Shown here piece after piece: positions 6,064-54,367 of a stretch of DNA of 64,000 bases. Numbering within the stretch: position 1 is the stretch's first letter; each line of letters opens with the position of its first letter. The stretch is from NCBI GenBank assembly GCA_964652615.1, contig CAZZAT010000001.1, forward strand, positions 153,886 to 217,885, read 5' to 3'. Position numbers and translations under genes: made by a program. The notes under the pieces were generated by a model. It was not told the origin of the DNA. It did not search any database and worked only from the letters and a program-made list of their open reading frames with translations. This DNA comes from an uncultured Candidatus Saccharibacteria bacterium. Lineage in GTDB: Bacteria; Patescibacteriota; Minisyncoccia; Phycocordibacterales; Phycocordibacteraceae.

Positions 6064-6744
6064 TTAGAGAATATAGTGGCCGCGCGGATCATCGCGCACG
6101 ACTCTTCCTTTATCCATAGTGATAACACGCTTGCCCATAGCATCCACGACACCTTTGTTATGCGTTGTGATGATGACGGTAGTACCGAGTTCGTTGATTT
6201 TCTTTAGAATCTCAATGACGTCATAGGTGTTGACCGGATCGAGATTTCCTGTTGGTTCATCTGCAACAATCAAATCGGGCTGATTGATGATGGCACGGCC
6301 AATGGCAACGCGCTGCTGCTCACCGCCTGAAAGCTGCGAGGGGAAATGGCGGGCTTTATCGCCAAGATCCACAAGATCAAGAATGTAGGGTACGTCTGAA
6401 GCGATGTCCTCGTCGCTTTTGCCTATCGCTTCCATAGCAAACGCAATATTCTCGTATGCGGTGCGGTTTGGAATGAGACGGAAGTCCTGAAATACCGTCC
6501 CTATCTTGCGACGATAGTGGTGAAGCGCGTTTTTAGGGATGTCGTTCACATTCATTTCTTCAAAATACACAGCGCCTTCGGAAGGAGTATCTTCTGCAAG
6601 GAGCATTTTCAAAAGCGTCGTCTTCCCAGCTCCTGAATGACCAACAATGGAGACGAATTCTTTGGGACCAATAGAGAGCGAGACATCGTGGAGCGCAGGA
6701 GTCCCGTCTTTGTATTGCTTTGTTACTTTGTCGAAAAGAATCAT
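6064..6744 (-). CDS. ftsE: cell division ATP-binding protein FtsE
   Basis: Walker A GHSGAGKTT, ABC signature LSGGEQQR, Walker B LIVADEPT. 226 aa. Confidence 0.9.
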   Translation of the reverse strand: MILFDKVTKQYKDGTPALHDVSLSIGPKEFVSIVGHSGAGKTTLLKMLLAEDTPSEGAVYFEEMNVNDIPKNALHHYRRKIGTVFQDFRLIPNRTAYENIAFAMEAIGKSDEDIASDVPYILDLVDLGDKARHFPSQLSGGEQQRVAIGRAIINQPDLIVADEPTGNLDPVNTYDVIEILKKINELGTTVIITTHNKGVVDAMGKRVITMDKGRVVRDDPRGHYIL

Positions 6745-6753
6745 ATAACCTCG

Positions 6754-7629
6754 CTATTCTACCCCACCTTTGGTGGATGCATCAATAAACGAATCCAAAT
6801 CTCCGGATAACACCGCGTCTGGATTCCCTGATTCGTGGCCTGTTTCGTGATCTTTCACCATTTTATACGGGTGTAATACATAGGAGCGGCGCTGACTCCC
6901 CCACTCATTCTTCGTAGAGGATGAGAGGGAGCGCCCCTTCGCCTCTGCCTCACGCCGCTCTTCTTCTAGACGAAAGAGTTTGGCTTGTATGATATCGAGT
7001 GCTCGTTCGCGGTTAGCTTGCTGGCTACGCTCGCTTGAAACATGAGCTGAAACGCCGGTAGGGGTGTGTACGATGCGCACCGCCGTCTCTCGCTTGTTCA
7101 CGTTCTGTCCGCCCGCTCCTCCTGAACGTGCAAATTGTATTTCAAGGTCTTCCGGCTTTAGTTCTTGCTTTAGGTTGGGCGCAAGCTTTGGGAGTACTTC
7201 AATCATTGCAAAACTGGTCTGCCGCTTGTCCTTTGCATTAAAGGGTGAGATGCGCACGAGACGATGCACCCCTGCTTCGTGTTTGAGCTTTCCGTATGCT
7301 CCCTTCCCGCGAACCTCAAGCAATAGGTTACGGTATCCACCATGATCATTTTCATTGGCGTGCAGCTCACTTACGCCCCACCCTTTTAAGGATGCATACC
7401 CTTCATACATTCTACGAAGCATTGCAGCGAAATCTTCAGCGTCATCGCCTCCTGCTCCCGCAAGCACCGCAAGCGTTGCGTCTCCGTCATCTTCTGCATT
7501 TCCGCTTCCCCCTTCTTTCAGAGTCTGGTATTCGCGCACGAGGAGCTGTGCCTTATCTTTATCCTCCCAGAAGTCGGATGAGGCCATGAGGGCCTCAAGT
7601 TCAGCTATGCGCGGATGCTCTTCGCTCAT
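6754..7629 (-). CDS. prfB: peptide chain release factor 2 (SPF and GGQ motifs), single uninterrupted ORF, short N-domain
   Basis: [16 protein letters not shown] (SPF, RF2-specific) and [20 protein letters not shown] (GGQ). 291 aa with no programmed frameshift visible. Confidence 0.85.
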
Positions 7630-7643
7630 GGAGGGAGTATAGC

Positions 7644-7666
7644 AAAACCCGCATCATGCGGGTTTT
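7644..7666 (-). terminator. hairpin aaaacccgcat-c-atgcgggtttt; inferred original terminator of tRNA-Thr, now 7.3 kb from the tRNA
   Basis: Perfect 11-bp stem with T-run. Joining it to the tRNA-Thr(CGT) 3' end at the shared gattttggag core gives tRNA immediately followed by a terminator, i.e. an empty attB. Confidence 0.5.
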
Positions 7667-7860
7667 GATTTTGGAGACCCTATTAAACTCCGTTAGAACC
7701 CATTTTGCAAAGGAGCCATGATTGCTCGCGCCTCGCAGACTCGGCGCTCGCCCCGACCCTGGTGGCTCAAGCAGACTTGACCACACTTGAAGCACTACGT
7801 GTCTTCGGCGTCCGCACTAAAATCCTTTTCTTTTTTCGCGGGGGAAATCCAAAAATCCGG
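7667..7860. repeat. repeat A (194 bp), left arm of element; perfect inverted copy at 12334..12527
   Basis: Reverse complement of 12334..12527 is identical base for base. Similarity continues imperfectly to about 7876 / 12318. Confidence 0.9.
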
Positions 7861-7981
7861 GCTCGGAGCGGCAGGGCTCGGGGGTAGCCCAAAATACCAG
7901 GGTGGTCTCGTGTCTGTTTTTTATCCGCTTTGAATCGTCCCTGACTAAAGAGATTCACCCCTCGGCATCCGCCTCGGGGCT

Positions 7982-8267
7982 GTTTCCGCTATGGCTACGA
8001 AGGCCTAGATTCCTCTGTGCCGCCTTTTCCTTGCTCTCCGCCCTGCGGGGCGGGAGCTTCGGGGCGGCTCTTGTTTGGGGGAAGGACGCATCCTTCCCCC
8101 AGCTCGGGTTCATCCTCGTTCCTTCGGATTCCACCCTCGCACAACCCCCATCCTCGTTTGCATACGAGTGTTCGCTGTGTCGCTTCCGCTTTTAGATACG
8201 GTGGCTTCGGTGTTCGTCGGCCTTCGTCCTTTAGCCATGGACGCTCATAGCGGAAACAGCCCCGAGG
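7982..8267. repeat. GC-rich structured non-coding region: 21-bp perfect inverted repeat arms (7982-8002 / 8246-8267) about 243 nt apart, plus partial secondary IRs
   Basis: ctcggggctgtttccgctatg and its exact reverse complement. No credible ORF in the region. It lies just inside the left end of the element. Confidence 0.5.
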
Positions 8268-8333
8268 CAAATACATAACGCTTGCCCCACCCACCCGTGC
8301 GCGCATAACCCGCCGCGAAACGCGGCGGACTCC

Positions 8334-8702
8334 CTAAGAATGACGCAACTGCTTATACACAAACCAGCCTAAGGGTATGAAAAATAAAGAAGTCATGAGA
8401 CCTGGAGTATAAGTTTGATGAATCAGAGCGGAAAACAGGTGAGACAGTTCAATTATAGAGAAAACCAACAAAACGAACCAGAGTATCCTAGCTCTCGGGG
8501 TGTCTCGAAAAAAATACAAAACAAACAGAAATATAAAAACTACTACTTGCACCAATAGCCAAACAGCAATTTGCGGCAGAGAAACCGTTTCTGAAAACCA
8601 CTTGAGGATAGTGTCAGTACGGTGAAATCCAGATAGGTACTCTTCAACGGCATGAAGGAAGAAAAGGATAGCCGAAAAGATTATCACGCGACTTGAGGTC
8701 AT
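8334..8702 (-). CDS. HXXEE-domain membrane protein (start taken at MTSSRV, internal to the listed ORF)
   Basis: LHAVEEY motif with four predicted TM segments. 4-bp ATGA overlap with the upstream gene. Confidence 0.55.
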   Translation of the reverse strand: MTSSRVIIFSAILFFLHAVEEYLSGFHRTDTILKWFSETVSLPQIAVWLLVQVVVFIFLFVLYFFRDTPRARILWFVLLVFSIIELSHLFSALIHQTYTPGLMTSLFFIPLGWFVYKQLRHS

Positions 8703-9091
8703 TTTCTCGATTTTGCGTACATCACGAGAACTGTAGGTATGGTAAGTGCAATAGCATCTATAAGAAGATGCATCAGATCGTCGGGTCGTATGAGACCAAT
8801 AACGAGCATCCCGAGAATATGCGCGAAAGTTGCGACAATTGTGAAATTTGTAAAAAACAAATGCTGTTCCGGAACCCGAGACGCGACCCACAGATAGTAG
8901 CCCCATACGGCAAACATCAGCGTGAACATCAACTCAAAATCCCACGCATATTCCGCGCCTCGAAACTCCGGAATAAGCGCGGACGGTAGTTGGACTCCGA
9001 GCAACGGAGCGACTGATAGCACGAACACCACGATGTACCACCAGAAGAACAGCGCGAGGATTTTTAGGGCAAGTCCTAGATTCAACTTCAT
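8699..9091 (-). CDS. hypothetical polytopic membrane protein
   Basis: Four hydrophobic segments and no recognised motif. Sits in an operon with the neighbouring membrane and metal genes. Confidence 0.55.
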   Translation of the reverse strand: MKLNLGLALKILALFFWWYIVVFVLSVAPLLGVQLPSALIPEFRGAEYAWDFELMFTLMFAVWGYYLWVASRVPEQHLFFTNFTIVATFAHILGMLVIGLIRPDDLMHLLIDAIALTIPTVLVMYAKSRK

Positions 9092-9137
9092 GACAGTAAT
9101 CCTACCATCGCAAAAGGCCCCTTTCGGGGCCTTTGTG

Positions 9138-9764
9138 CTAGAGAAGGATCAGGAGTAATCCTGCTAACGCTGCCATGCCGAAGTCCTCGATGAGAGTAAT
9201 TTTCGTTAGCGGTACTTTCAGGAAAGTTCCGAGGCATGCACACATGAATTCTTCCTTCTTCGCTATCTTGATCGCAACTCCGATACCGCTGAAGAGCATC
9301 ACGGCGAGTTCCGTCCATAGGAGCCATGCGTCGTGAATCCCTGCGAGCATGAGGAGACCGAACGCAAGTTCTATGAACGGATAGATATACCCGTAGGCAG
9401 GCCAACGACTCGCGAGAAGATCGTAGGTTGAATATCCCTCCGCAAATCCCTTGAGATCTAGGAACTTGAATCCGGCGAAGACAAGAAAGAATCCCGCCAT
9501 GAAGTATCCAATGGTACTTGTGAGCGCGAGTTCTCCGCTTGCATAATCTCCCCACGAAGCCGCAAGCGTACCCGCAACGAGAAGCCCGAAGATGACCATG
9601 AGCGGGATATAACTCTTCCAAGTTATGGGCCCGAGGCCGCGGTCTTCAATATGCTGTTTCGGTTTTGCGTGTACTTCTGTTTCCAGCACGAGCGCCATGT
9701 GGCACTTCGGACATCGTCCCGGTCCTTCTTGCCGTACTTCAGGGTGCATTGGACAGGTATACAT
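9138..9764 (-). CDS. heavy-metal-binding domain (CPMHPE...CPKCHM) fused to DoxX/MauE-like membrane domain
   Basis: N-terminal YTCPMHPEVRQEGPGRCPKCHMAL resembles the TCPMHP heavy-metal-binding domain. Followed by a four-TM MauE/DoxX-like region. Confidence 0.6.
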   Translation of the reverse strand: MYTCPMHPEVRQEGPGRCPKCHMALVLETEVHAKPKQHIEDRGLGPITWKSYIPLMVIFGLLVAGTLAASWGDYASGELALTSTIGYFMAGFFLVFAGFKFLDLKGFAEGYSTYDLLASRWPAYGYIYPFIELAFGLLMLAGIHDAWLLWTELAVMLFSGIGVAIKIAKKEEFMCACLGTFLKVPLTKITLIEDFGMAALAGLLLILL

Positions 9765-9766
9765 GG

Positions 9767-10258
9767 CTATATCGCTTCATAACTAATAACGACCTTCTCC
9801 TTGTCTTTAAGCACCGTGTTCTCGTAGGTATCCACTTCAACTCCGTCTACAAGAACCTTGATCCGATGAGTCTCGTCTGTCTTGAACCCGAGGATTTCTT
9901 CGGTTGTGAACGGCTTTCCCCAGACCGCGAAGAAGTCCGCGAGCGTGAAGTCGCGTCGTTCCGGCGATTCCACATGAATCGTCCCTACCGCGTCATGGGT
10001 ATGGAGCGCGTTCATACAGTTAGGAAGCACGCCTATGTTCGGAGGTATTTCCTGTTTCTCGCCGTTCACGACTATTTCTAGCGTCGGGTGAATGTGGAAC
10101 TCGGTCGCCATATCCGTCGTGCAAGTAAGCGCCACTTCTCTAGTTGTCCGTTCCGTCTTCACGGATTCTTGTTCTCCACGCGTGAACAGAACAAAGAAGA
10201 GGATGAGTGCCGATATGCCGAAGACAATTGCAACAGCCGTCTTCATACTAATTTTCAC
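9767..10258 (-). CDS. hypothetical secreted/anchored protein with His-rich motifs (HIHPT, HTHD)
   Basis: N-terminal TM/signal segment. Conserved-looking His clusters that could bind metal. No family assigned. Confidence 0.5.
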   Translation of the reverse strand: MKISMKTAVAIVFGISALILFFVLFTRGEQESVKTERTTREVALTCTTDMATEFHIHPTLEIVVNGEKQEIPPNIGVLPNCMNALHTHDAVGTIHVESPERRDFTLADFFAVWGKPFTTEEILGFKTDETHRIKVLVDGVEVDTYENTVLKDKEKVVISYEAI

Positions 10259-10985
10259 GCAAGGCCTGTTCTACCGCCTGCTTTATCGATTCATACGGCT
10301 GCGCTCCCGAAAGCGGATACTTCTTTCCGTTTTTTGTGATGACGACGCTCCACGGAGTTCCATTTCCGCCAGTTGCGGTCGCGTTGTCGAGGTCAGCTTG
10401 GATGTGAGCATTATGACGGTCGCTCGCCGCGCATGCACTGAACGCCACAGTATCAAGTCCAACGAATGCGGCGATTTTTGGCAACTCGGCAGCGTCAAGG
10501 CCGTCGTTTGAGGGAGTAATCTCAAACAAGCGATCGGCATACTTCCAGAACGCATCGTTTCCGCCAAGTTCAGCGGCACACTCAAGCGCAACCGCTTCGC
10601 TTCGCGCTTTCTTGTGAAGCGAGTCCAGCGGGAAGTGCCGATATACCCACGCAACTTTGCCGCCTGCACCATACTCGTTCATCACTTGCCTCATGGTCTC
10701 GTGGAAGCGTTTACAGAACGGACACTCAGTATCCGAATACTCCACGATAATCACTTCCGCATCCGCACTTCCGCGAATGTGGTCGTTCACCGTTATGGGT
10801 GCGATAGAATCTAGCGCTTTCTTAAGTGCTACTTGATCCTGTCCTTGCCCCTGTGGCTGATTGTCTGCTGTGAGCGCGCCGCCGCCCGAATATATGGCTC
10901 CGGCGATAAGGAGCGCACCAAACACTACCGCGAGCGGTGTGAGATATTTTTCAAGAGTTGGGTTCATAGTCGGTTTCTTACTCAA
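10248..10985 (-). CDS. DsbA-family thiol:disulfide oxidoreductase (CPFC active site), membrane-anchored
   Basis: IIVEYSDTECPFCKRFH thioredoxin-fold CxxC motif and an N-terminal TM anchor. Confidence 0.8.
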   Translation of the reverse strand: MSKKPTMNPTLEKYLTPLAVVFGALLIAGAIYSGGGALTADNQPQGQGQDQVALKKALDSIAPITVNDHIRGSADAEVIIVEYSDTECPFCKRFHETMRQVMNEYGAGGKVAWVYRHFPLDSLHKKARSEAVALECAAELGGNDAFWKYADRLFEITPSNDGLDAAELPKIAAFVGLDTVAFSACAASDRHNAHIQADLDNATATGGNGTPWSVVITKNGKKYPLSGAQPYESIKQAVEQALREN

Positions 10986-11370
10986 TGCCGTACCACTCCT
11001 TCTGCCACTCTTTCATCTGCGCGATTTCTGCGGCCTGCGCAGCAATGATGGCATCTGCCATCATCTTGATTTCAGCGTGTTTGGCATTGACCTTTGCCGC
11101 TTCAGCCATCTGGACTGCTCCCTCATGATGCATGATCATCTCCGACAGAAACGTTTTATCAAACGCGTCTCCCGTCTTGCCGGAAAGCCCCATCATCATT
11201 GAGTCCATTTCGCCCTTCATTCCAGAGGACATGGAACCGGACATCATGTTCCCATCCGGCATCATGTGTCCGTTTTTTTGTTCGGGAGCAGTTTTACCCA
11301 CGAACGCGTAAGTGCCGAGACCTCCGATAAGTAGCGATACAAGCGCTACAAGAACAATATTTTTTTGCAT
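10978..11370 (-). CDS. DUF305-family protein, Met/His-rich (putative copper-binding), secreted
   Basis: MIMHHEGAVQMAE matches the DUF305 core. Met-rich stretch MMPDGNMMSGSMSSGMKGEMDSMMMG resembles methionine-rich copper-binding motifs. Confidence 0.7.
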   Translation of the reverse strand: MQKNIVLVALVSLLIGGLGTYAFVGKTAPEQKNGHMMPDGNMMSGSMSSGMKGEMDSMMMGLSGKTGDAFDKTFLSEMIMHHEGAVQMAEAAKVNAKHAEIKMMADAIIAAQAAEIAQMKEWQKEWYGIE

Positions 11371-11412
11371 AGGTTGTGAATCAAAGCGAATAAGCGCACC
11401 TAAATGCGGTAC

Positions 11413-11775
11413 TTAGTACGCTTTAGAATTCAGGAGTCCTTGCGCGAACAATTCTTGAAAGAGTGTCGGCCGAGTCGCATAGGCAGGAGGCGGGGGCGAC
11501 CATTCGTTCCGGCGAGGAAGAAGGTACGCAAAGCCGATAGCAGCAACGACGGTAATGTAGGGGAGCGAATCAACGAGGGTGGTCGTGAACGCGCTTTGCC
11601 AATGTTCTATATGGTCAAAAACGCTCATGGCGCAGATGGACATCTGCCCTTGCATGAACGGACAACCGATTTCGTGATTCTCGGACATAGAGAGAATCGA
11701 GAATGGTCCAAGTACGACCATTACGAAAATGGCGACGGTAAGCCCTATGGAAACAAATCCTTTCCCGAAAGCCAT
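11413..11775 (-). CDS. small hypothetical membrane protein with CPFMQGQMSIC motif
   Basis: Two to three TM segments and a Cys pair. No family assigned. Confidence 0.45.
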   Translation of the reverse strand: MAFGKGFVSIGLTVAIFVMVVLGPFSILSMSENHEIGCPFMQGQMSICAMSVFDHIEHWQSAFTTTLVDSLPYITVVAAIGFAYLLPRRNEWSPPPPAYATRPTLFQELFAQGLLNSKAY

Positions 11776-11862
11776 GTATCCATTATACCGCGCAAGTCAA
11801 GGGCGCGGAATTATACCCCTTACGCCTTCACCATCCTGCCCGACTAGGATTACAATTACAGC

Positions 11863-12309
11863 ATGAACCATAGCCCCTATCCGCGCCTCACCGCGATGAT
11901 CCTGCTCTCGTTCGCCGCGATGTATGTCCTCATGTATTCAATGGCGAATGTCCTTGCGAATGTGTATCCGAACCTAAACCAACTCTATATGGCCGGACTT
12001 ATGACTGCGCCAATGGTGCTGTTTGAGATGTTCCTTATGAGTGCAATGTACCAGAACAAGAAACTGAATTTTGCGATTATCGCGGTTGCGCTAATCGTAT
12101 TTGTCGGCTTCTTTCTCGCGATTCGCTACCAAGTAGGCATATCGGACGAGGAGTTTGTGAAGTCAATGATTCCGCACCACGCAGGCGCAGTGCTCATGTG
12201 CGAGAAAGCAGACCTTAGCGATCCGGAGATTCATGCGCTCTGCGCGGGCATAATCTCAGGGCAACAGCAGGAAATTGAACAAATGAAAAAAATTCTTGAA
12301 AGAATATAA
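11863..12309 (+). CDS. DUF305-family membrane protein
   Basis: MIPHHAGAVLMCE DUF305 core after three to four TM segments. Divergent from the minus-strand cargo operon. Confidence 0.7.
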   Translation: MNHSPYPRLTAMILLSFAAMYVLMYSMANVLANVYPNLNQLYMAGLMTAPMVLFEMFLMSAMYQNKKLNFAIIAVALIVFVGFFLAIRYQVGISDEEFVKSMIPHHAGAVLMCEKADLSDPEIHALCAGIISGQQQEIEQMKKILERI

Positions 12310-12333
12310 AACCCTCCCCCCTGCCGCTCCTTG

Positions 12334-12527
12334 CCGGATTTTTGGATTTCCCCCGCGAAAAAAGAAAAGGATTTTAGTGCGGACGCCGAAGACACGTAGT
12401 GCTTCAAGTGTGGTCAAGTCTGCTTGAGCCACCAGGGTCGGGGCGAGCGCCGAGTCTGCGAGGCGCGAGCAATCATGGCTCCTTTGCAAAATGGGTTCTA
12501 ACGGAGTTTAATAGGGTCTCCAAAATC
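12334..12527. repeat. repeat A' (inverted copy of 7667..7860)
   Basis: Exact reverse-complement identity over 194 bp. Confidence 0.9.
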
Positions 12528-12668
12528 GAAATCAGCCCAGTTTTTCCCGAATGCATTTTCGCAGAATGCAATTCCCGCCAAGGTAATACAGGGATTCCGC
12601 GCGCTTCGCGCGCGTGGGGGAGGTTCAGAAATACAGAATCCGAAAATTTTCTGGAGGGAGGATTTTTT
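12518..12668. repeat. repeat B (about 150 bp), inverted copy of 14891..15034 with two small indels; contains palindrome cgcgcgcgaagcgcgcg
   Basis: Its reverse complement matches the sequence immediately upstream of the tRNA-Thr 3' end. It abuts repeat A', so together they form an inverted attP-like composite. Confidence 0.85.
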
Positions 12669-12759
12669 ACTTCTTGTGTGCTTGCCCCACCCTTCCCGTG
12701 CGCGCACACGAGCCCTTTCGCTAAAAACTCTGTAATTAGCGAAACTCCCTATAAAAGCG

Positions 12760-12782
12760 GAAAAGCCCCTCGGGGCTTTTCC
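12760..12782. terminator. hairpin gaaaagcccctcggggcttttcc, likely bidirectional terminator downstream of DUF3800 gene
   Basis: Perfect 9-bp GC-rich stem flanked by A/T runs. Confidence 0.45.
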
Positions 12783-12881
12783 AGATTGCCTGTGCTTCGG
12801 CGACGGAATACGCCGCTTACGTGCAGTACGCTCCGCGCAGGACTTACATCACTATCCAATATAACGAAAATATGCGTGAAA

Positions 12882-13526
12882 TCAAGGTGAAGGGTTGGGT
12901 GTGGGGATAGTAGGATTTTGTCCAAATTTGCTCTGCGGAAATCGTATAGATTCGCTTATCGTCAGCATGTTGTAGAAATGGCTCTTGCCGTAGTTGTAAT
13001 GAGCCCATATTGCGTTCGCAATTACATCCGCCGCTTGTACAACCTTCGAGTGTTGAGAGTTCGTATATGAAATCTGTAAATCGTGCTGAAAACCAAACTG
13101 TGTGAATGCTTTTATTTTTATGTAATCGGCAAGTGAATTTATTGAACCTACTTTAGTAGAGTGATTATCGAGCAGGATGCAAAGATCTTCAGGTGAACTT
13201 CTGATCGTTTTCTTCACGAGGAAAGAAAATAGGTAGTTGTAGCAAAGGTTCTTATCCTCGAAGAGTTTTTTGTTATCTATGTTTTGCTTATCTGCAACAA
13301 TGTAAGAAACTGTATAGTCATTCGCACTACAAAGCCTGTTAAAAATCTCTTGTTTTTGCTTGAAAGATAGATTACTTGCTTTCACTTCAGGAAGATTATT
13401 TCTGGTGCAAAATTTCCTCATGAAATTTACGATGCGTTTACTCCTTTGGGGCGCAAGCAAAACGAGCACGAAATAGCGGTCTTTCGTCCCTAGATTCCCC
13501 GACTCATCGACGAATAACGTTTTCAT
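12882..13526 (-). CDS. DUF3800-family protein (N-terminal LFVDESG motif), AT-rich gene
   Basis: MKTLFVDESGNLG is the hallmark N-terminus of DUF3800. Local composition is clearly more AT-rich than neighbours. Divergent from the recombinase gene with an 18-bp gap. Confidence 0.6.
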   Translation of the reverse strand: MKTLFVDESGNLGTKDRYFVLVLLAPQRSKRIVNFMRKFCTRNNLPEVKASNLSFKQKQEIFNRLCSANDYTVSYIVADKQNIDNKKLFEDKNLCYNYLFSFLVKKTIRSSPEDLCILLDNHSTKVGSINSLADYIKIKAFTQFGFQHDLQISYTNSQHSKVVQAADVIANAIWAHYNYGKSHFYNMLTISESIRFPQSKFGQNPTIPTPNPSP

Positions 13527-13543
13527 GGGCGTATAATCGAATT

Positions 13544-15064
13544 ATGCGCTTCTTCCTGTACGCTCGCAAATCAACCGATACCGAGGACAAACAGGTTCTC
13601 TCTATTGAGGCGCAGTTGGCCGAATTGCGCGCTCTAGCCCGCCGTGAAGGGTTGGAAATCGTTGAAGAATTTGTAGAGAAGCGTTCCGCAAAGTCTCTTG
13701 GTCGCCCCGTGTTCGGCGAGATGATGTCGCGTATCCAAAACGGCGAAGCACAAGGAATTCTCTGCTGGAAGATAGATCGCCTCGCGCGTAATCCCGTGGA
13801 CGGTGGACAGATTCAATGGCTTCTCCAGCGAGGTGTGATTCGGCATATTCAAACACACGACCGTTCCCATTTCCCGAACGACAATGTTCTTATGATGTCT
13901 GTCGAACTTGGAATGGCGAACGAATATGTGCGCCAACTCGCCGCTAATACCTCGCGTGGACTCCGACAGAAAGCGCGAACAGGTGTATACCCTGGACTCG
14001 CCCCCATCGGCTACCTAAACGACCCGCGTACAAAAACTATTCGCACTCACAAAAAGAACTCTGTGCTCGTGCGCGAAATGTTTGAACGGTACGCGAACGG
14101 AAACACAACGCTAAATGACCTCGCTATCGTTCTTGAGAACTCCGGCGTAATTTCTAAAGGCAATAAACGGGTAAATATTTCTCGCGTTTCATTCATTTTG
14201 CAGAACCCTTTTTATTACGGCCACTTCCGCTACGCGGGCGAAGTGTACGAAGGCAAGCACGAGCCGATTATTACGAAAGCCCTATACGATAAGGCGAACA
14301 GTGTTCTACGAAGTCGTGGCCGTACTCCCGCCTCTAAAGCTATCCCTAGCCCTTATTGTGGGCTCCTACGCTGTGGCGAATGCGGTATGGGTATCACAGC
14401 CGAAGTGAAGGAAAAGCACCAAAAGAACGGCAATATCCACCATTACACTTACTACCGCTGTACTCGCAAATCTAAAACCCAAAAGTGTAAAGAAGCGCCG
14501 ATACGAAGCGAACTTTTAGATTCGCAACTAACGGCACTTCTGGGCGAGTACACGATGCCTGCCGAGTGGGTGTCGCCTCTCAACGAAATGCTCAACCACG
14601 AGGCGACTACAGCCTCACAGACGGCATCAGGAGTGATTTTTGAACTGCGAGCAAAAGCAGAAGATATTGCACGTCAACTCTCCCGCCTCACGGATTTATA
14701 TGTTGCTGAAGATTTGGAGCGTGAGGATTATCTTTCCCGTCGCCGTGCTCTTACGAGCGAGAAGCGAACGATAGAGGAGAAAATCGCCAAACTTGAACAA
14801 GCCCCATCTGCATGGGTTGAACCTGTTAGGGAGTGGATTTTGGACGCTTCGCGTCTAGGTGAAATAGCAAAGTCCGAAGACCTGCATTCCAAAAAATCCT
14901 CCCTCCAGAAAATTTTCGGATTGAACCTCTCCCTCCACGCGCGCGAAGCGCGCGGAATCCCTGTATTACCTTGGCGGGAATTGCATTCTGCGAAAATGCA
15001 TTCGGGAAAAACTGGGCTGATTTCGATTTTGGAGCCATCGGCCGGGATTGAACCGGCGACCTAA
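13544..15064 (+). CDS. large serine recombinase (resolvase catalytic domain + recombinase domain + zinc ribbon + coiled coil)
   Basis: YARKSTDTEDKQ...SIEAQ catalytic-serine region, IDRLARN, zinc ribbon CGLLRCGECG...YYRCTRKSKTQKC. The last roughly 50 codons are encoded by repeat B' and the antisense of tRNA-Thr. Confidence 0.9.
   Translation: MRFFLYARKSTDTEDKQVLSIEAQLAELRALARREGLEIVEEFVEKRSAKSLGRPVFGEMMSRIQNGEAQGILCWKIDRLARNPVDGGQIQWLLQRGVIRHIQTHDRSHFPNDNVLMMSVELGMANEYVRQLAANTSRGLRQKARTGVYPGLAPIGYLNDPRTKTIRTHKKNSVLVREMFERYANGNTTLNDLAIVLENSGVISKGNKRVNISRVSFILQNPFYYGHFRYAGEVYEGKHEPIITKALYDKANSVLRSRGRTPASKAIPSPYCGLLRCGECGMGITAEVKEKHQKNGNIHHYTYYRCTRKSKTQKCKEAPIRSELLDSQLTALLGEYTMPAEWVSPLNEMLNHEATTASQTASGVIFELRAKAEDIARQLSRLTDLYVAEDLEREDYLSRRRALTSEKRTIEEKIAKLEQAPSAWVEPVREWILDASRLGEIAKSEDLHSKKSSLQKIFGLNLSLHAREARGIPVLPWRELHSAKMHSGKTGLISILEPSAGIEPAT
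14891..15034. repeat. repeat B' (right arm of element, abuts tRNA-Thr 3' end)
   Basis: Matches the reverse complement of 12518..12668. Ends in the gatttcgattttggag core immediately before the tRNA CCA end. Confidence 0.85.
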
Positions 15065-15105
15065 GGTTTACGATACCTTCGCTCTACCAACTGAGCTACG
15101 ATGGC
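15030..15105 (-). tRNA. tRNA-Thr(CGU), CCA encoded
   Basis: Manual fold: GCCATCG acceptor, GCTC-AGTTGGTA-GAGC D-arm, anticodon stem AAGGT/ACCTT with loop ATCGTAA, T-arm GCCGG-TTCAATC-CCGGC, CCA. 76 nt. Confidence 0.85.
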
Positions 15106-15122
15106 AACGCTTCAGGTGAAGC

Positions 15123-15198
15123 TGGAGCCGATGGCCGGGATTGAACCGGCGACCCCCACCTTACCATGGTGGTGCTCTACCAACTGAGCTACATCGGC
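15123..15198 (-). tRNA. tRNA-Thr(GGU), CCA encoded
   Basis: Same scaffold as the adjacent tRNA-Thr, but anticodon stem CCACC/GGTGG with loop ATGGTAA. 76 nt. Confidence 0.85.
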
Positions 15199-15309
15199 AC
15201 GCGCACCAGCGCATCCTAGCCGATTTTTCCCTTCATTTCAATCGCTTCGTTTCGCGCTATCCACGCGTTTTGTGCGGAGATTCTCGTGTCCTCTGCTACT
15301 CTCGAATAA

Positions 15310-15510
15310 ATGGATAAAGCCGACCCGCGCTGCGCATGCTTCCACCATCACATCGCGCCTGCAGCGCTCATTCTTATCGGCCTTGCTTTCATCCTCAATG
15401 CGCTCGGCTTCCTTTCAGATACACTCCTCACTCTCTCGTGGCCCTCGCTCCTTATCCTTGCAGGGCTCGCAAAGCTCATGGGACCCTCCTGTAGGTGCTG
15501 TAAGCGTTAG
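15310..15510 (+). CDS. small Cys/His-rich membrane protein (hypothetical)
   Basis: 66 aa, two TM helices, CACFHHH and CRCCKR motifs. Coding status uncertain. Confidence 0.35.
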   Translation: MDKADPRCACFHHHIAPAALILIGLAFILNALGFLSDTLLTLSWPSLLILAGLAKLMGPSCRCCKR

Positions 15511-15558
15511 CCCACAGCCCTCTCCTTCTTTTAGGGCGCTTCCTGCTATGATGCGCAT

Positions 15559-15945
15559 ATGAATAATCTCTTTAGACGGTTCGCCCAACATATAAGTAAA
15601 ATTGCTGGTTCGCCAAAAGCATTCGCGCTTGCGCTCGCCATAATAATCGTGTGGGCGATTTCAGGGCCCATTTTCGGCTTCTCTGATACGTGGCAGCTCA
15701 TGATTAATACAGGCACGACCATACTTACCTTCCTTATGGTGTTCCTCATCCAGAACACCCAGAACCGAGATTCGCACGCAATTCATCTCAAGCTCGATGA
15801 GCTCATTAATGCAATTGATTCGGCACGCAATCAGCTCATAGACATAGAAGACAGCACGGACGAAGCCATGGAGCTCTTTGACAAAGAGTTCGACGACATT
15901 CGCGAAACGCACACCAAGATTCTCAAAAAGGAAGAGTCGGCATAG
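15559..15945 (+). CDS. low-affinity iron permease-like membrane protein (PF04120-like)
   Basis: FLIQNTQNRDSHAIHLKLDELI resembles the conserved core of the low-affinity Fe permease family. Confidence 0.55.
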   Translation: MNNLFRRFAQHISKIAGSPKAFALALAIIIVWAISGPIFGFSDTWQLMINTGTTILTFLMVFLIQNTQNRDSHAIHLKLDELINAIDSARNQLIDIEDSTDEAMELFDKEFDDIRETHTKILKKEESA

Positions 15946-15948
15946 CGC

Positions 15949-16794
15949 ATGCTGGGCCTCATTCTCGTCGCCGTCTCGCAGGTTTTTGCAGAATTTGCTG
16001 CCTCGTTTGGCAAGCGCGAGGTCGAACGCAAAGAAGAAACCGTCTATGAGATGGCGTTCTTGAGCACGGTATGGGGCGCCGTCCTTATAAGCCTTTGGGG
16101 TGTCTTCCACGGTTCCTTTGTCTTTAATCCTGAAAGTCTCCCTCTCTTTCTGGTACGTTCGGTGCTTGAGATTGCACTTCTCTTCATCAGCTTCCATGCG
16201 GTGATACGTGCAGATCGAAGCACGTTTGCATTTCTGCGCGTCCTTACTATTCCTGCGGTACTTGCCGCAGATATCGTACTTGGATACACGCTCTCGCTTA
16301 CGCAAATACTTGGCATGCTTCTTATCGTGACCTCGCTCGGTCTTCTTTTCTTTGGGAAAGGACTAAGCGCTACAGGAAAGCTGCTTACGATAACTGCTGC
16401 CCTTCTTGCAGCGGCAACCGTGAGTCTCTTTAAATACAACCTCACCTATTATGGAAACTCTGTAGAGGCAGAAGAATCGATAATGTACGCGATACTTCTC
16501 GTCGCCGTCATCGCGGCCGGATTCTTCCGCGGACACCAGAATGTCTTTGCGTCGTTTCTACGACCTGCCCACCTCGCCCAGTCTTTTGCGGCAGGTATCG
16601 GTTCAATACTTATGGCATTCGCCTATGTATTCGCTCCCGCTTCCGTCATCATGTCAGGCAAGCGCGCGCTCGATATTCTCTATGCCATTGTCTCGGGCCA
16701 GACCTACTTCCATGAGAATCGTCTGGCTTTGAAGCTGCTGGCTTTTTTGGTTGTTGCGACAGGAGTCGGATTGGTTGCGTTTGGTGCGTTATAA
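15949..16794 (+). CDS. EamA/DMT-superfamily transporter (10 TM)
   Basis: Ten hydrophobic segments in two halves, about 280 aa. Confidence 0.55.
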   Translation: MLGLILVAVSQVFAEFAASFGKREVERKEETVYEMAFLSTVWGAVLISLWGVFHGSFVFNPESLPLFLVRSVLEIALLFISFHAVIRADRSTFAFLRVLTIPAVLAADIVLGYTLSLTQILGMLLIVTSLGLLFFGKGLSATGKLLTITAALLAAATVSLFKYNLTYYGNSVEAEESIMYAILLVAVIAAGFFRGHQNVFASFLRPAHLAQSFAAGIGSILMAFAYVFAPASVIMSGKRALDILYAIVSGQTYFHENRLALKLLAFLVVATGVGLVAFGAL

Positions 16795-53899: not shown

Positions 53900-54306
53900 G
53901 GGGGTGACCGGCTTTGACGGTCTGTTCTTTGAGAGACGTGCGACGCGGCGGAAGTTTGCTGTCCGCCTACAAACGCAAACAAACATACTTGCAAAGAACA
54001 CTCTTGCAAGCGTGAAGTCTCCATACTTCGGTATGTCTGATTTCGCGTTCGCTTACGCGCGCGCCTAACGGCCCTTCGCCTAAGCGACATCCAGCCAGCT
54101 GAGATCTCATAGTCTCTGGTTTCTGGGTGTAATTACCTATGAGATGGACACTCTGTTTTCCCGTGCAGAGGTCGAGATAAGGGATACGATAGGAGCGGTT
54201 TCGTGCCGGTTCCTCGCGCCCTATCGGAATGCCTAGCCGGCACTACGCGTCGTAGACTCGCTCTCAAAGACGGATTCGGACTGGAGTTCGATTCTCCACA
54301 CCTCCA
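53900..54306 (+). ncRNA. ssrA: tmRNA (ssrA)
   Basis: 5' GGGGGTGACCGGCTTTGACGG (acceptor strand plus the GGNUUYGACGG box). 3' GGAG-TTCGATT-CTCCA T-arm followed by CACCTCC pairing the 5' GGGGGTG, then A-CA. About 407 nt, directly downstream of smpB. Tag ORF not confidently identified. Confidence 0.7.
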
Positions 54307-54367
54307 CAGCTATACTCATTTTGACTATACTCAAAATGACTGGAAATACCGCCTCTCAGGCGGTTTT

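Follow-up and report, generated by a model that had tools for sequence, protein, structure and literature searches.

The window analysed here, a stretch of 64,000 nucleotides (nt) from an uncultured Candidatus Saccharibacteria bacterium, contains an integrated mobile element that encodes a large serine recombinase (LSR). The element occupies positions 7677-15024 (7.4 kb) and lies at the 3' end of a tRNA-Thr(cgt) gene in a genome of the Patescibacteria, or candidate phyla radiation (CPR). A site inside the element carries inverted copies of both of its ends, and this internal site splits it into a cargo segment bracketed by inverted left arms and a module of DUF3800 and recombinase genes bracketed by inverted right arms. 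From left to right, the element is composed as follows.

7667-7676, plus strand: core copy at the left junction (attL, chromosomal D side joined to the left arm), from the alignment; minimal core TGGAG at 7672-7676, narrowed with the related loci L001, L080 and L081
7677-7860, plus strand: left arm (a P'-type arm), from the repeat search and alignment
7861-12333, no strand: segment A, the cargo cassette between the inverted left arms, from Pfam and the inverted repeat
12334-12517, minus strand: L', the inverted left-arm copy, from the repeat search and alignment
12518-12527, minus strand: internal core, the reverse complement of gattttggag and the centre of an inverted attP-like composite, from the alignment
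12528-12668, minus strand: R', the inverted right-arm copy, with a T-rich 10-nt insertion (12628-12637), two small deletions and a copy of a GC-rich palindrome (12598-12614)
12669-12881, no strand: conserved spacer outside R', with the motif GCTTGCCCCACCCTTCCCGTGCGCGCA at about 12681-12706
12758-12783, minus strand: terminator-like hairpin for the DUF3800 gene, within this spacer
12882-13526, minus strand: DUF3800 gene (Pfam PF12686, E = 1e-12), accessory and variable within the recombinase module
13544-15064, plus strand: LSR gene, 506 amino acids, with Resolvase, Recombinase and Zn-ribbon domains (open reading frame list, Pfam)
14891-15024, plus strand: right arm (R), which encodes the last ~45 LSR residues and contains the palindrome at 14938-14954
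15025-15034, plus strand: core copy at the right junction (attR, right arm joined to the tRNA), from the alignment

The arms were delimited by a repeat search of positions 6500-16500 and by gapped alignment. The reverse complement of 12336-12531 is identical to 7663-7858 at 195 of 196 positions, and the sole mismatch falls to the left of the core, within the chromosomal flank; the left-arm repeat therefore consists of the 10 nt of the core and at least 182 exact nt of arm. In the repeat finder the ungapped left arm reaches 7860 (184 nt; 194 nt including the core); in the gapped alignment a 1-nt indel interrupts it at 7859, and 15 of the next 17 positions match. For the right arm, the reverse complement of 12518-12617 matches 14935-15034 at all of its 100 positions and that of 12638-12668 matches 14891-14921 at all 31; between these two blocks the internal copy has 10 additional nt (12628-12637) and lacks 2 nt at one place and 1 nt at another. 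The left-arm and right-arm matches of the internal site overlap at the core gattttggag (12518-12527, minus strand). An earlier, sequence-only reading of this DNA had described the internal site as an inverted, intact attP-like composite (right arm, core, left arm), with inverted left-arm repeats around the cargo and inverted right-arm repeats around the DUF3800 and recombinase module, and both descriptions are borne out by the repeat search and alignment. It had also given the right-arm copy two small indels; the repeat stands, with three indels in the alignment. No further arm copy exists elsewhere in the 64-kb window, and segments A and B (cargo and recombinase module) are each unique, single-copy sequence. 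All other repeats within the surrounding 10 kb are 32 nt or shorter, which excludes a chance origin of the arm repeats.

The sequences into which the element has been inserted were identified on both sides.

6754-7629, minus strand: release-factor-2-like gene of the chromosomal flank, on the left (D) side of the original attB (open reading frame list; assigned to RF-2 by eye from a GGQ motif)
7644-7666: terminator-like hairpin after the release-factor gene, also part of the D side of the original attB
15030-15105, minus strand: tRNA-Thr(cgt), the integration target, whose 3' end CTCCA is the core (ARAGORN, Rfam)

The core gattttggag of the sequence-only reading is indeed common to all three sites of the window, whereas comparison with relatives narrows the obligatory core to TGGAG, the reverse complement of the last five tRNA bases (C72-U73-CCA). 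Among the relatives, L001 has this element (LSR 93% identical in amino acids, ~87% nt identity) in the neighbouring tRNA-Thr(ggt), while its release-factor orthologue lies 13 nt from an uninterrupted tRNA-Thr(cgt). The arms of the L001 and window elements begin and finish at the same bases, and the flanks share only TTGGAG. The same ends at a different tRNA, together with the uninterrupted tRNA-Thr(cgt) of L001, indicate that 7677-15024 was site-specifically integrated with a crossover within T(T)GGAG. Hybrid junctions with a short core, the same element at a second target and an empty site in L001 are thus all found, as is characteristic of LSR elements. A second tRNA-Thr (ggt) is present in the window at 15123-15198, 17 nt from the targeted tRNA and with a near-identical 3' end; it is a potential second attB and corresponds to the site used by the L001 element. 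In several relatives (L001 at 11486-11741; the LSR tails of P0006, P0013, P0022 and others, with ...SFAYT...), tRNA-Thr(ggt) appears to be interrupted by an insertion of ~170 nt between its halves, possibly an intron; ARAGORN did not call these interrupted genes. An Rfam scan of 7000-15600 at E <= 1 found nothing but the two tRNAs; a DUF3800-associated RNA motif was not among the hits. The contig index had no exact entry for the window LSR, and the exact 33-nt internal-site pattern had no match in metagenome contigs, such that variants of the element's own population, its empty site and its circle were not recovered. The viral contig collection yielded a single unrelated match at 26% identity.

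The recombinase belongs to the LSR class: it has an N-terminal resolvase catalytic domain with the nucleophilic serine in a Y-x-R-x-S motif (PF00239, 3e-23; N-terminus MRFFLYARKST), a recombinase domain (PF07508, 4e-15) and a zinc ribbon (PF13408, 8e-9), and it matches the SPbeta and A118 integrases in PDB distantly but significantly. Its reading frame crosses the whole right arm and the core and continues into the antisense strand of the tRNA, where it ends as ...ILE followed by PSAGIEPAT and a stop. The same frame read over the internal composite would finish as ...ILE followed by TLLNSVRTHFAKEP and a stop, and this native tail, TLLNSVRTHFAKEP, would be encoded by the first ~45 nt of the left arm, which are conserved family-wide. 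The window LSR therefore has two possible ends, ...ILETLLNSVRTHFAKEP in the native-tail form and ...ILEPSAGIEPAT in the tRNA-tail form. Since the frame spans the core, integration exchanges the native C-terminal tail for antisense-tRNA codons. We inspected the tails of the best 120 homologues and found that 91 of them end in antisense-tRNA tails (...LILE followed by PxxGIEPxTSSLPWxCSTN-like sequence, the 3' half of the tRNA read backwards), while 6 have the native tail encoded by the left arm (...LILE followed by SLLNSARTYF..., with RT[YH]F). The nearest relatives of all 6 native-tailed LSRs, at 73-92% identity, are tRNA-tailed, and thus both states are scattered over the tree (polyphyletic). 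Two database LSRs, P0086 and P0087, bear an R'-type insertion in their own 3' ends.

To determine how general this layout is, we used LSR homologues, of which 6024 were found at E <= 1e-20 among 8000 candidates scored; almost all of them come from metagenome-assembled genomes (MAGs) of Patescibacteria/CPR. Genome loci were compared in 79 cases. Nearly every LSR with sufficient upstream sequence in this set is preceded by an inverted copy (R') of its own last 135-190 nt, whose end coincides with the core and whose distance upstream of the LSR start is 0.2-9 kb. In the junction table, which covers ~50 LSR 3' ends, the internal junction runs into a conserved left-arm motif, TCTCTATTGTACTCCGCTAGAACCTAYTTT. 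With a slash for the junction, the LSR-side junction reads ...TTTGATTnnGGAG/CC...GGATTGAACC (tRNA), and the R' junction has the same arm followed by /TCTCTATTGTACTCCGCTAGAACCTAYTTTAGCAAAAAT (left arm, its first ~45 nt conserved throughout the family). In 13 loci (including L001, L002, L009, L011, L021, L035 and L039) the cargo is closed off by another left arm, inverted and further upstream; the two left arms are 100% identical over 263 nt in L009, where they lie 8.3 kb apart, over 249 nt in L021 and over 213 nt in L035. An inverted copy of the LSR 3' end is also present in L066, L069 and L071, whose LSRs are 34-35% identical and come from Bacteroidota-labelled MAGs. In addition, a search of metagenomes with a degenerate core and left-arm motif revealed 36 more sites, which were sorted by eye: ~20 are junctions of chromosome and left arm, 8 are internal composites with the LSR pointing away, and at least one is an LSR that reads directly into a left arm (L127). 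The arms of a pair usually share 98-100% identity within a locus, compared with 70-85% between loci, and a stretch of ~45 nt that is present in both left arms of the window is missing from both of those in L001. These patterns indicate that, as judged by sequence comparison, the arm copies of one element evolve in concert.

Perfect inverted repeats of 100-194 nt trouble short-read assemblers, and many contigs of this family stop precisely at these repeats, which accounts for their frequent breaks at 2-3 kb; the orientation of segments in short-read assemblies of these elements is unreliable. The sequence-only reading had accordingly listed an assembly artefact and a head-to-head dimer resolution product among its options, that is, an error or a one-off rearrangement peculiar to the window contig. 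Neither survives the comparison. The same architecture recurs in ~50 loci from independent assemblies, which stem from many studies and were made with SPAdes, MEGAHIT and other pipelines. A conserved 10-11-nt insertion specific to R' separates the two right-arm copies, an indel that an artefact could not create, and segments A and B are present once each, which also speaks against a dimer. Given the many studies and assemblers and the consistent difference between R and R', an artefact, a dimer-resolution product and a strain-specific accident are excluded, and we regard an origin of this kind as scarcely conceivable. LSR elements are expected to possess a single attP, whereas two inverted attP-type sites are found here and in ~50 relatives. 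The structural description of the element is secure, and we consider it probable that the family as a whole comprises LSR elements that target tRNA 3' ends, mostly of tRNA-Thr, and that carry two inverted attP copies in a conserved layout.

The two right-arm copies are not equivalent. Most loci have, in R' and not in R, a T-rich insertion of 10-11 nt (TTYTGNATTTY) at a fixed position, ~105 nt from the core; R' also shows a deletion of 2-3 nt, and the two together produce a net frameshift relative to R. In eight loci R and R' are equal in length and 99-100% identical, presumably following gene conversion. Of two explanations tried for these features, the first was rejected and the second found no support. 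A small stand-alone protein, the LSR C-terminal peptide, read from R' into L' would need an open frame, and the frame is closed ~35 codons upstream in several loci and has no conserved start codon. As for the insertion being a terminator of the accessory gene, a consensus scan calls no terminator in R', and the DUF3800 gene has a strong terminator-like hairpin of its own at 12758-12783.

The difference between R' and R could also suggest that R' has a distinct role, namely that the internal composite acts as a regulatory decoy by giving the LSR one more binding site, for autoregulation or titration, and is no recombination substrate. Minimal elements in which R' lies just 130-350 nt upstream of the LSR start codon fit this proposal as well. 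However, R' and the LSR of the window and of many relatives lie 0.9-9 kb apart with other genes between them, the 200 nt of left arm and the partner copy at the far end of the cargo would be superfluous for a decoy, and R' has been found recombined with tRNAs. A decoy is therefore very improbable.

The window palindrome, cgcgcgcgaagcgcgcg, occurs at 14938-14954 and 12598-12614, ~80-95 nt from the core. The right arms of most relatives contain two GC-rich palindromes, CGCGCGCGAAGCGCGCG and GCGGAGCTTCGCTCCGC, of which the window has the first (14938-14954); the second corresponds to alignment columns 105-125, and the loops of the two hairpins are GAA and TTC(G). In an alignment of 39 arms, changes on both sides were observed in 11 of 17 pairs, and cells with double changes numbered 83, against 28.7 in shuffles (0 of 500 reach the observed value). 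The pairing collapses in slid registers. The compensatory substitutions alter the encoded amino acids. The covariation points to conservation of a hairpin rather than of a fixed sequence, inside coding sequence and 45-100 nt from the core. The earlier suggestion that the palindrome is a recombinase binding site is unlikely if a core site is meant, given its distance of ~80-95 nt from the crossover and its maintenance as a hairpin by compensation; it may instead act as an RNA hairpin, as a bidirectional terminator of the LSR and tRNA genes or as a DNA structure. Nearer to the core, a GAAC motif starts at +20 in left arms (33 internal junctions) and at +16 in tRNAs (29, plus 4 at 15). In the A118 integrase system, the distal motif bound by the zinc-ribbon domain is shifted outward in attP relative to attB half-sites, and the +20 and +16 spacing of GAAC resembles this shift. 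The chromosomal (D) half-sites show no conservation except for the T before GGAG, and inspection by eye found no symmetry of the right arm with left-arm or tRNA half-sites.

Natural variants of these loci reveal which of the junctions have been exchanged. In L047, L066 and L081 a tRNA abuts R', and the LSR faces away from the tRNA and into a left arm; judging by these junctions, either right-arm copy can be joined to a tRNA. Four loci, L080, L081, L082 and L083, encode an identical LSR (P0043), with one and the same R' whose partner at TGGAG is tRNA-Thr(cgt) in L081 and a left arm in L080. Because L080 and L081 share no homology past the 5-nt core, this exchange of partners was site-specific. 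L080 and L082 differ in the direction of the cargo: positions 3523-6096 of L080, with a gene of 665 amino acids, are reversed in L082 at 100% identity over 2574 nt and between the same flanks. This cargo sits between left arms of 210 nt that are 93% identical, and the breakpoints fall between the core and the first arm difference, >72 nt in, a position that leaves LSR action and homologous recombination undistinguished. L080 is also a tandem chain, in the order inverted composite, helicase and LSR1, direct R1/L1 site, cargo, inverted R2'/L1' site, second LSR-like sequence, and R2 joined to tRNA-Thr(ggt). Accretion of two such elements would give such a chain, with sites in alternating orientation, and the chain implies earlier targeting of a hybrid site.

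A second group consists of ten contigs that carry an identical LSR (P0119) and flanks of 98-99.9% identity and that differ upstream, at the neighbouring tRNA-Thr(cgt). L085 has there a second LSR module in window-like orientation, with a canonical internal composite. In L089, whose chromosomal flanks are 99.8% identical to those of L085, this second module (99.3% identical) is inverted and lies between tRNA-Thr(tgt) and tRNA-Thr(cgt), with both 3' ends facing the module, and L091 has a different module at the same site in the flipped orientation. L088 has neither tRNA-Thr(cgt) nor a second LSR module, and tRNA-His and histidyl-tRNA synthetase genes are found upstream of its P0119 element. The contigs were assembled by MEGAHIT (k141) and their arms are identical over ~100 nt, which makes the joins in L085-L094 reliable. 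L010 offers another case of a module flanked by tRNA-type junctions on both sides. Such a position indicates that both attP copies have reacted, with two attB sites; the cargo half would then be located at the other breakpoint and the intervening chromosome would be inverted. The P0119 element of L088 itself is small, lies between tRNA-His and tRNA-Thr(ggt) with both 3' ends facing it, and includes an excisionase-like gene (MerR/HTH_17).

The outer arm of L089 and L091, with the R' insertion in it, moved together with the module, while the inner 63-100 nt by tRNA-Thr(cgt) stayed. This crossover inside the arm indicates that the flip, or the replacement of the module, occurred by homologous recombination. 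Of the recombinase-driven inversion proposed in the sequence-only reading, the inversion is thus observed in relatives, for the module in L085 and L089 and, with a caveat of misassembly, for the cargo in L080 and L082, while the part assigned to the recombinase is hypothetical, as the one flip with informative sites, that of L089, crossed over inside the arm. The inverted arms could, in an alternative explanation, be nothing else than substrates of the host's homologous recombination, which would flip-flop and swap the cassettes, similar to the inverted repeats of chloroplasts, with the LSR integrating and excising by the terminal sites and never using the internal attP. The mosaic arms of L089 and L091, which put the crossover 63-105 nt inside the arm, speak for this alternative; in addition, the arms (150-260 nt) far exceed the length of an LSR site and stay near-identical, and different recombinase modules at one tRNA have an identical inner arm. 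However, R' is joined to tRNAs at the 5-nt core in L047, L066, L081, L089, L091 and L010, for which homology would be insufficient unless a flip came first. L089 requires that an arm was joined site-specifically to another tRNA, and the internal junction always stops at the core and retains the conserved P'-type motif. We thus regard exclusive use by homologous recombination as unlikely, though it is the strongest of the competing explanations.

The same loci bear on the possibility that the element is in fact two adjacent, separate units, each moving by itself: a non-autonomous cargo element with left arms as terminal inverted repeats and an autonomous recombinase unit with right arms in this role. 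The modules are reshuffled independently of each other, the recombinase module stands between two tRNAs without adjoining cargo in L089 and L010, and contigs often consist of a module alone bounded by repeats (L040, L042). Nevertheless, the junction table shows R' next to either a left arm or a tRNA in every case and never next to ordinary chromosomal DNA. TGGAG is non-palindromic, and a unit with inverted cores therefore could not circularise with a single site. Moreover, the window and L001, whose target tRNAs differ, agree in the ends of the whole 7.4-kb unit. Two separate units are quite improbable.

The contents of the two segments are variable, and the cargo of the window contains, at its left end, one further conserved feature.

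7940-8310, plus strand: conserved non-coding module beside the left arm, a candidate structured RNA, with a closing helix of 7971-7993 with 8246-8268

According to Pfam, the cargo at 7861-12333 encodes metal/redox-type proteins: an HXXEE protein, a DUF6632-like protein, an HMBD-MauE protein, a DsbA-like thioredoxin and two DUF305 proteins. Relatives, L002 among them, hold other cargo between the same arms, and the cargoes of the family include metal/redox genes, restriction-modification systems and ATPase/helicase genes, the last of which may be related to defence. The DUF3800 gene is absent or substituted in relatives; across the family, the recombinase module consists of the LSR alone or of the LSR with DUF3800, a UvrD-like helicase, DUF4238, a helix-turn-helix (HTH) gene plus AAA_15, or MerR/HTH_17. 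No conserved excision or directionality factor was found, and no accessory gene is constantly paired with the LSR across the loci compared. Pfam also identified no replication genes in the window element.

The non-coding module of ~370 nt lies just inside the cargo, begins 250-350 nt past the left-arm core and recurs at this place in at least 17 related elements. RNAalifold, applied to 11 copies, predicted a long-range closing helix and inner hairpins, with compensatory changes in 17 of 42 pairs, and the G-U pairs favour the plus strand, which is the direction of the LSR in the attP configuration. There was no match to this module in Rfam, and it is a candidate for a new structured RNA associated with these elements. 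A motif of ~27-35 nt, GCTTGCCCCACCCnnCCCGTGCGCGCA, is located at its 3' end (8277-8303) and again just outside R' (12681-12706); the copy next to R' is found in many relatives (L028, L030, L036, L037, L091 and L009). A scan for sigma-70-type promoters gave hits no more frequent than in shuffled sequence. Elsewhere in the window, a tmRNA at 53900-54307 has an unusual tag, AKNTLASVKSPYFGMSDFAFAYARA.

How such an element would work can be proposed from its layout. The free form would be a circle with two inverted attP copies (right arm, TGGAG, left arm): one shares sequence with the 3' end of the LSR gene, the other is placed upstream of the recombinase module, and between them they would separate the cargo from the recombinase as two arcs of the circle. 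Integration through one attP would yield attL (chromosome joined to left arm), the cargo, an inverted intact attP, the recombinase module and attR (right arm joined to tRNA), which is precisely the order found in the window. If the copy in the LSR gene were used, the common state would result, with a tRNA-tailed LSR convergent with the tRNA. Integration through the other attP, or a flip of the module, would lead to the rare state, in which the LSR retains its native tail and is downstream of and co-directional with the tRNA. A switch between these two states would be a compact on/off or directionality control for elements without a conserved excision factor, and the long near-identical arms would let homologous recombination flip or swap both cassettes. 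Because no accessory gene is conserved with the LSR, the reading that we favour is that the architecture itself would regulate the recombinase. More specifically, it may be a flip-flop that sets the tail and the transcriptional context of the LSR, with the ~15:1 excess of tRNA tails as a locked resting state, a proposal that we make only tentatively. The fullest version, to which we give slightly less credence still and which must be considered doubtful, is one of architecture-encoded integrase control without a directionality factor, in which a native-tailed active form alternates with a tRNA-tailed locked form, the capture of two tRNAs splits the element and inverts the chromosome in a natural cassette-exchange and genome-rearrangement machine, and a dedicated structured RNA takes part.

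Several observations weigh against regulation by the architecture and against parts of the layout on which it is built. First, both orientations are known from a comparison of contigs and not from reads of one sample, and the orientation of segment A in the window is not verifiable across 194-nt perfect repeats. The L080/L082 flip, a single contig pair, could in principle be an error of assembly traversal across the 77 nt of identical inner arms, and the crossover inside the arm of L085/L089 shows that at least that flip was due to homologous recombination and was not catalysed by the LSR. Second, canonical LSRs recombine attP only with attB, a one-way reaction that is reversed only with a recombination directionality factor, and both inversion by attP x attR and accretion by attP x attL would be non-canonical. 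Third, no circular form was recovered among the contigs searched. Fourth, integrated tRNA-tailed elements outnumber native-tailed ones by ~15 to 1, a bias for which any explanation is speculative, and no explanation was found for the conserved R' insertion. Finally, the P0119 LSR and the L053/L056 subfamily have no detectable inverted copy.

We compared the element with known systems that share some of its features. Phage-type LSRs (SPbeta SprA, A118/LI, Bxb1, phiC31 and TP901-1) have the same set of Resolvase, Recombinase and zinc-ribbon domains and likewise integrate at a short shared core with hybrid junctions. Unlike these systems, the present element has two inverted attP copies, one of them inside the recombinase's own frame, and targets the 3' CCA end of a tRNA, as is typical of tyrosine integrases; it also has no conserved adjacent directionality factor, and the L080 chain implies the use of a hybrid site. 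The yeast 2-micron plasmid, with Flp and FRT sites in inverted repeats of 599 bp, resembles the proposed circle in its two unique arcs, the recombinase in one of them and its two isomers. However, Flp is a tyrosine recombinase, and the plasmid replicates, uses inversion for copy-number amplification and does not integrate, whereas no circular contig was recovered and no replication gene was seen in the window element, whose circle is deduced from its layout alone.

Invertase switches and shufflons (Hin/hix, Gin/gix, R64 Rci, Min) are similar in that inverted sites flank a segment that can hold the recombinase gene, as with Hin, in that a repeat lies inside a coding sequence so that a flip changes the C-terminus of a protein, and in the alternating sites seen in the L080 chain. 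They differ in using small serine or tyrosine recombinases, sites of 26-31 bp and an enhancer with Fis, and they are non-integrative; in the present family the protein that changes its tail is the recombinase itself, and at least one flip occurred by homologous recombination. In mycobacteriophages with integration-dependent immunity and in SSV1-type elements with a split integrase, attP lies inside a gene of the element and integration rewrites the 3' end of that gene; the integrated and free forms thus encode different proteins, as proposed here. Those elements employ tyrosine integrases and have no second inverted attP, and the rewritten gene of the mycobacteriophages is a repressor. In recombinase-mediated cassette exchange (RMCE) with phiC31, a cassette is placed between two inverted serine-integrase sites, and a double reaction would put the arcs at two loci, as in L089; RMCE is engineered, whereas the present arrangement is natural and has two tRNA targets, so that double use would invert a stretch of the chromosome. 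The element belongs to none of the compared families (2-micron, invertases and shufflons, attP-in-gene elements, RMCE), and its recombinase is a genuine LSR.

No description of a natural element with dual inverted attP sites, or of LSR elements in Patescibacteria, was found in the searchable literature, a search outside whose scope most subscription journals fall. The layout of dual inverted attP sites that splits an element into two flippable segments is thus apparently undescribed. Large serine integrases are leading tools for the insertion of large DNA, and the control of their direction is an active question; a large, natural family with thousands of homologues gives a fresh approach, in thought and in experiment, to direction control, to self-limiting integration and to cassette exchange in nature. 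In the Patescibacteria, the family constitutes a major class of mobile elements, apparently uncharacterised so far, which visibly rearrange tRNA-Thr loci within natural populations.

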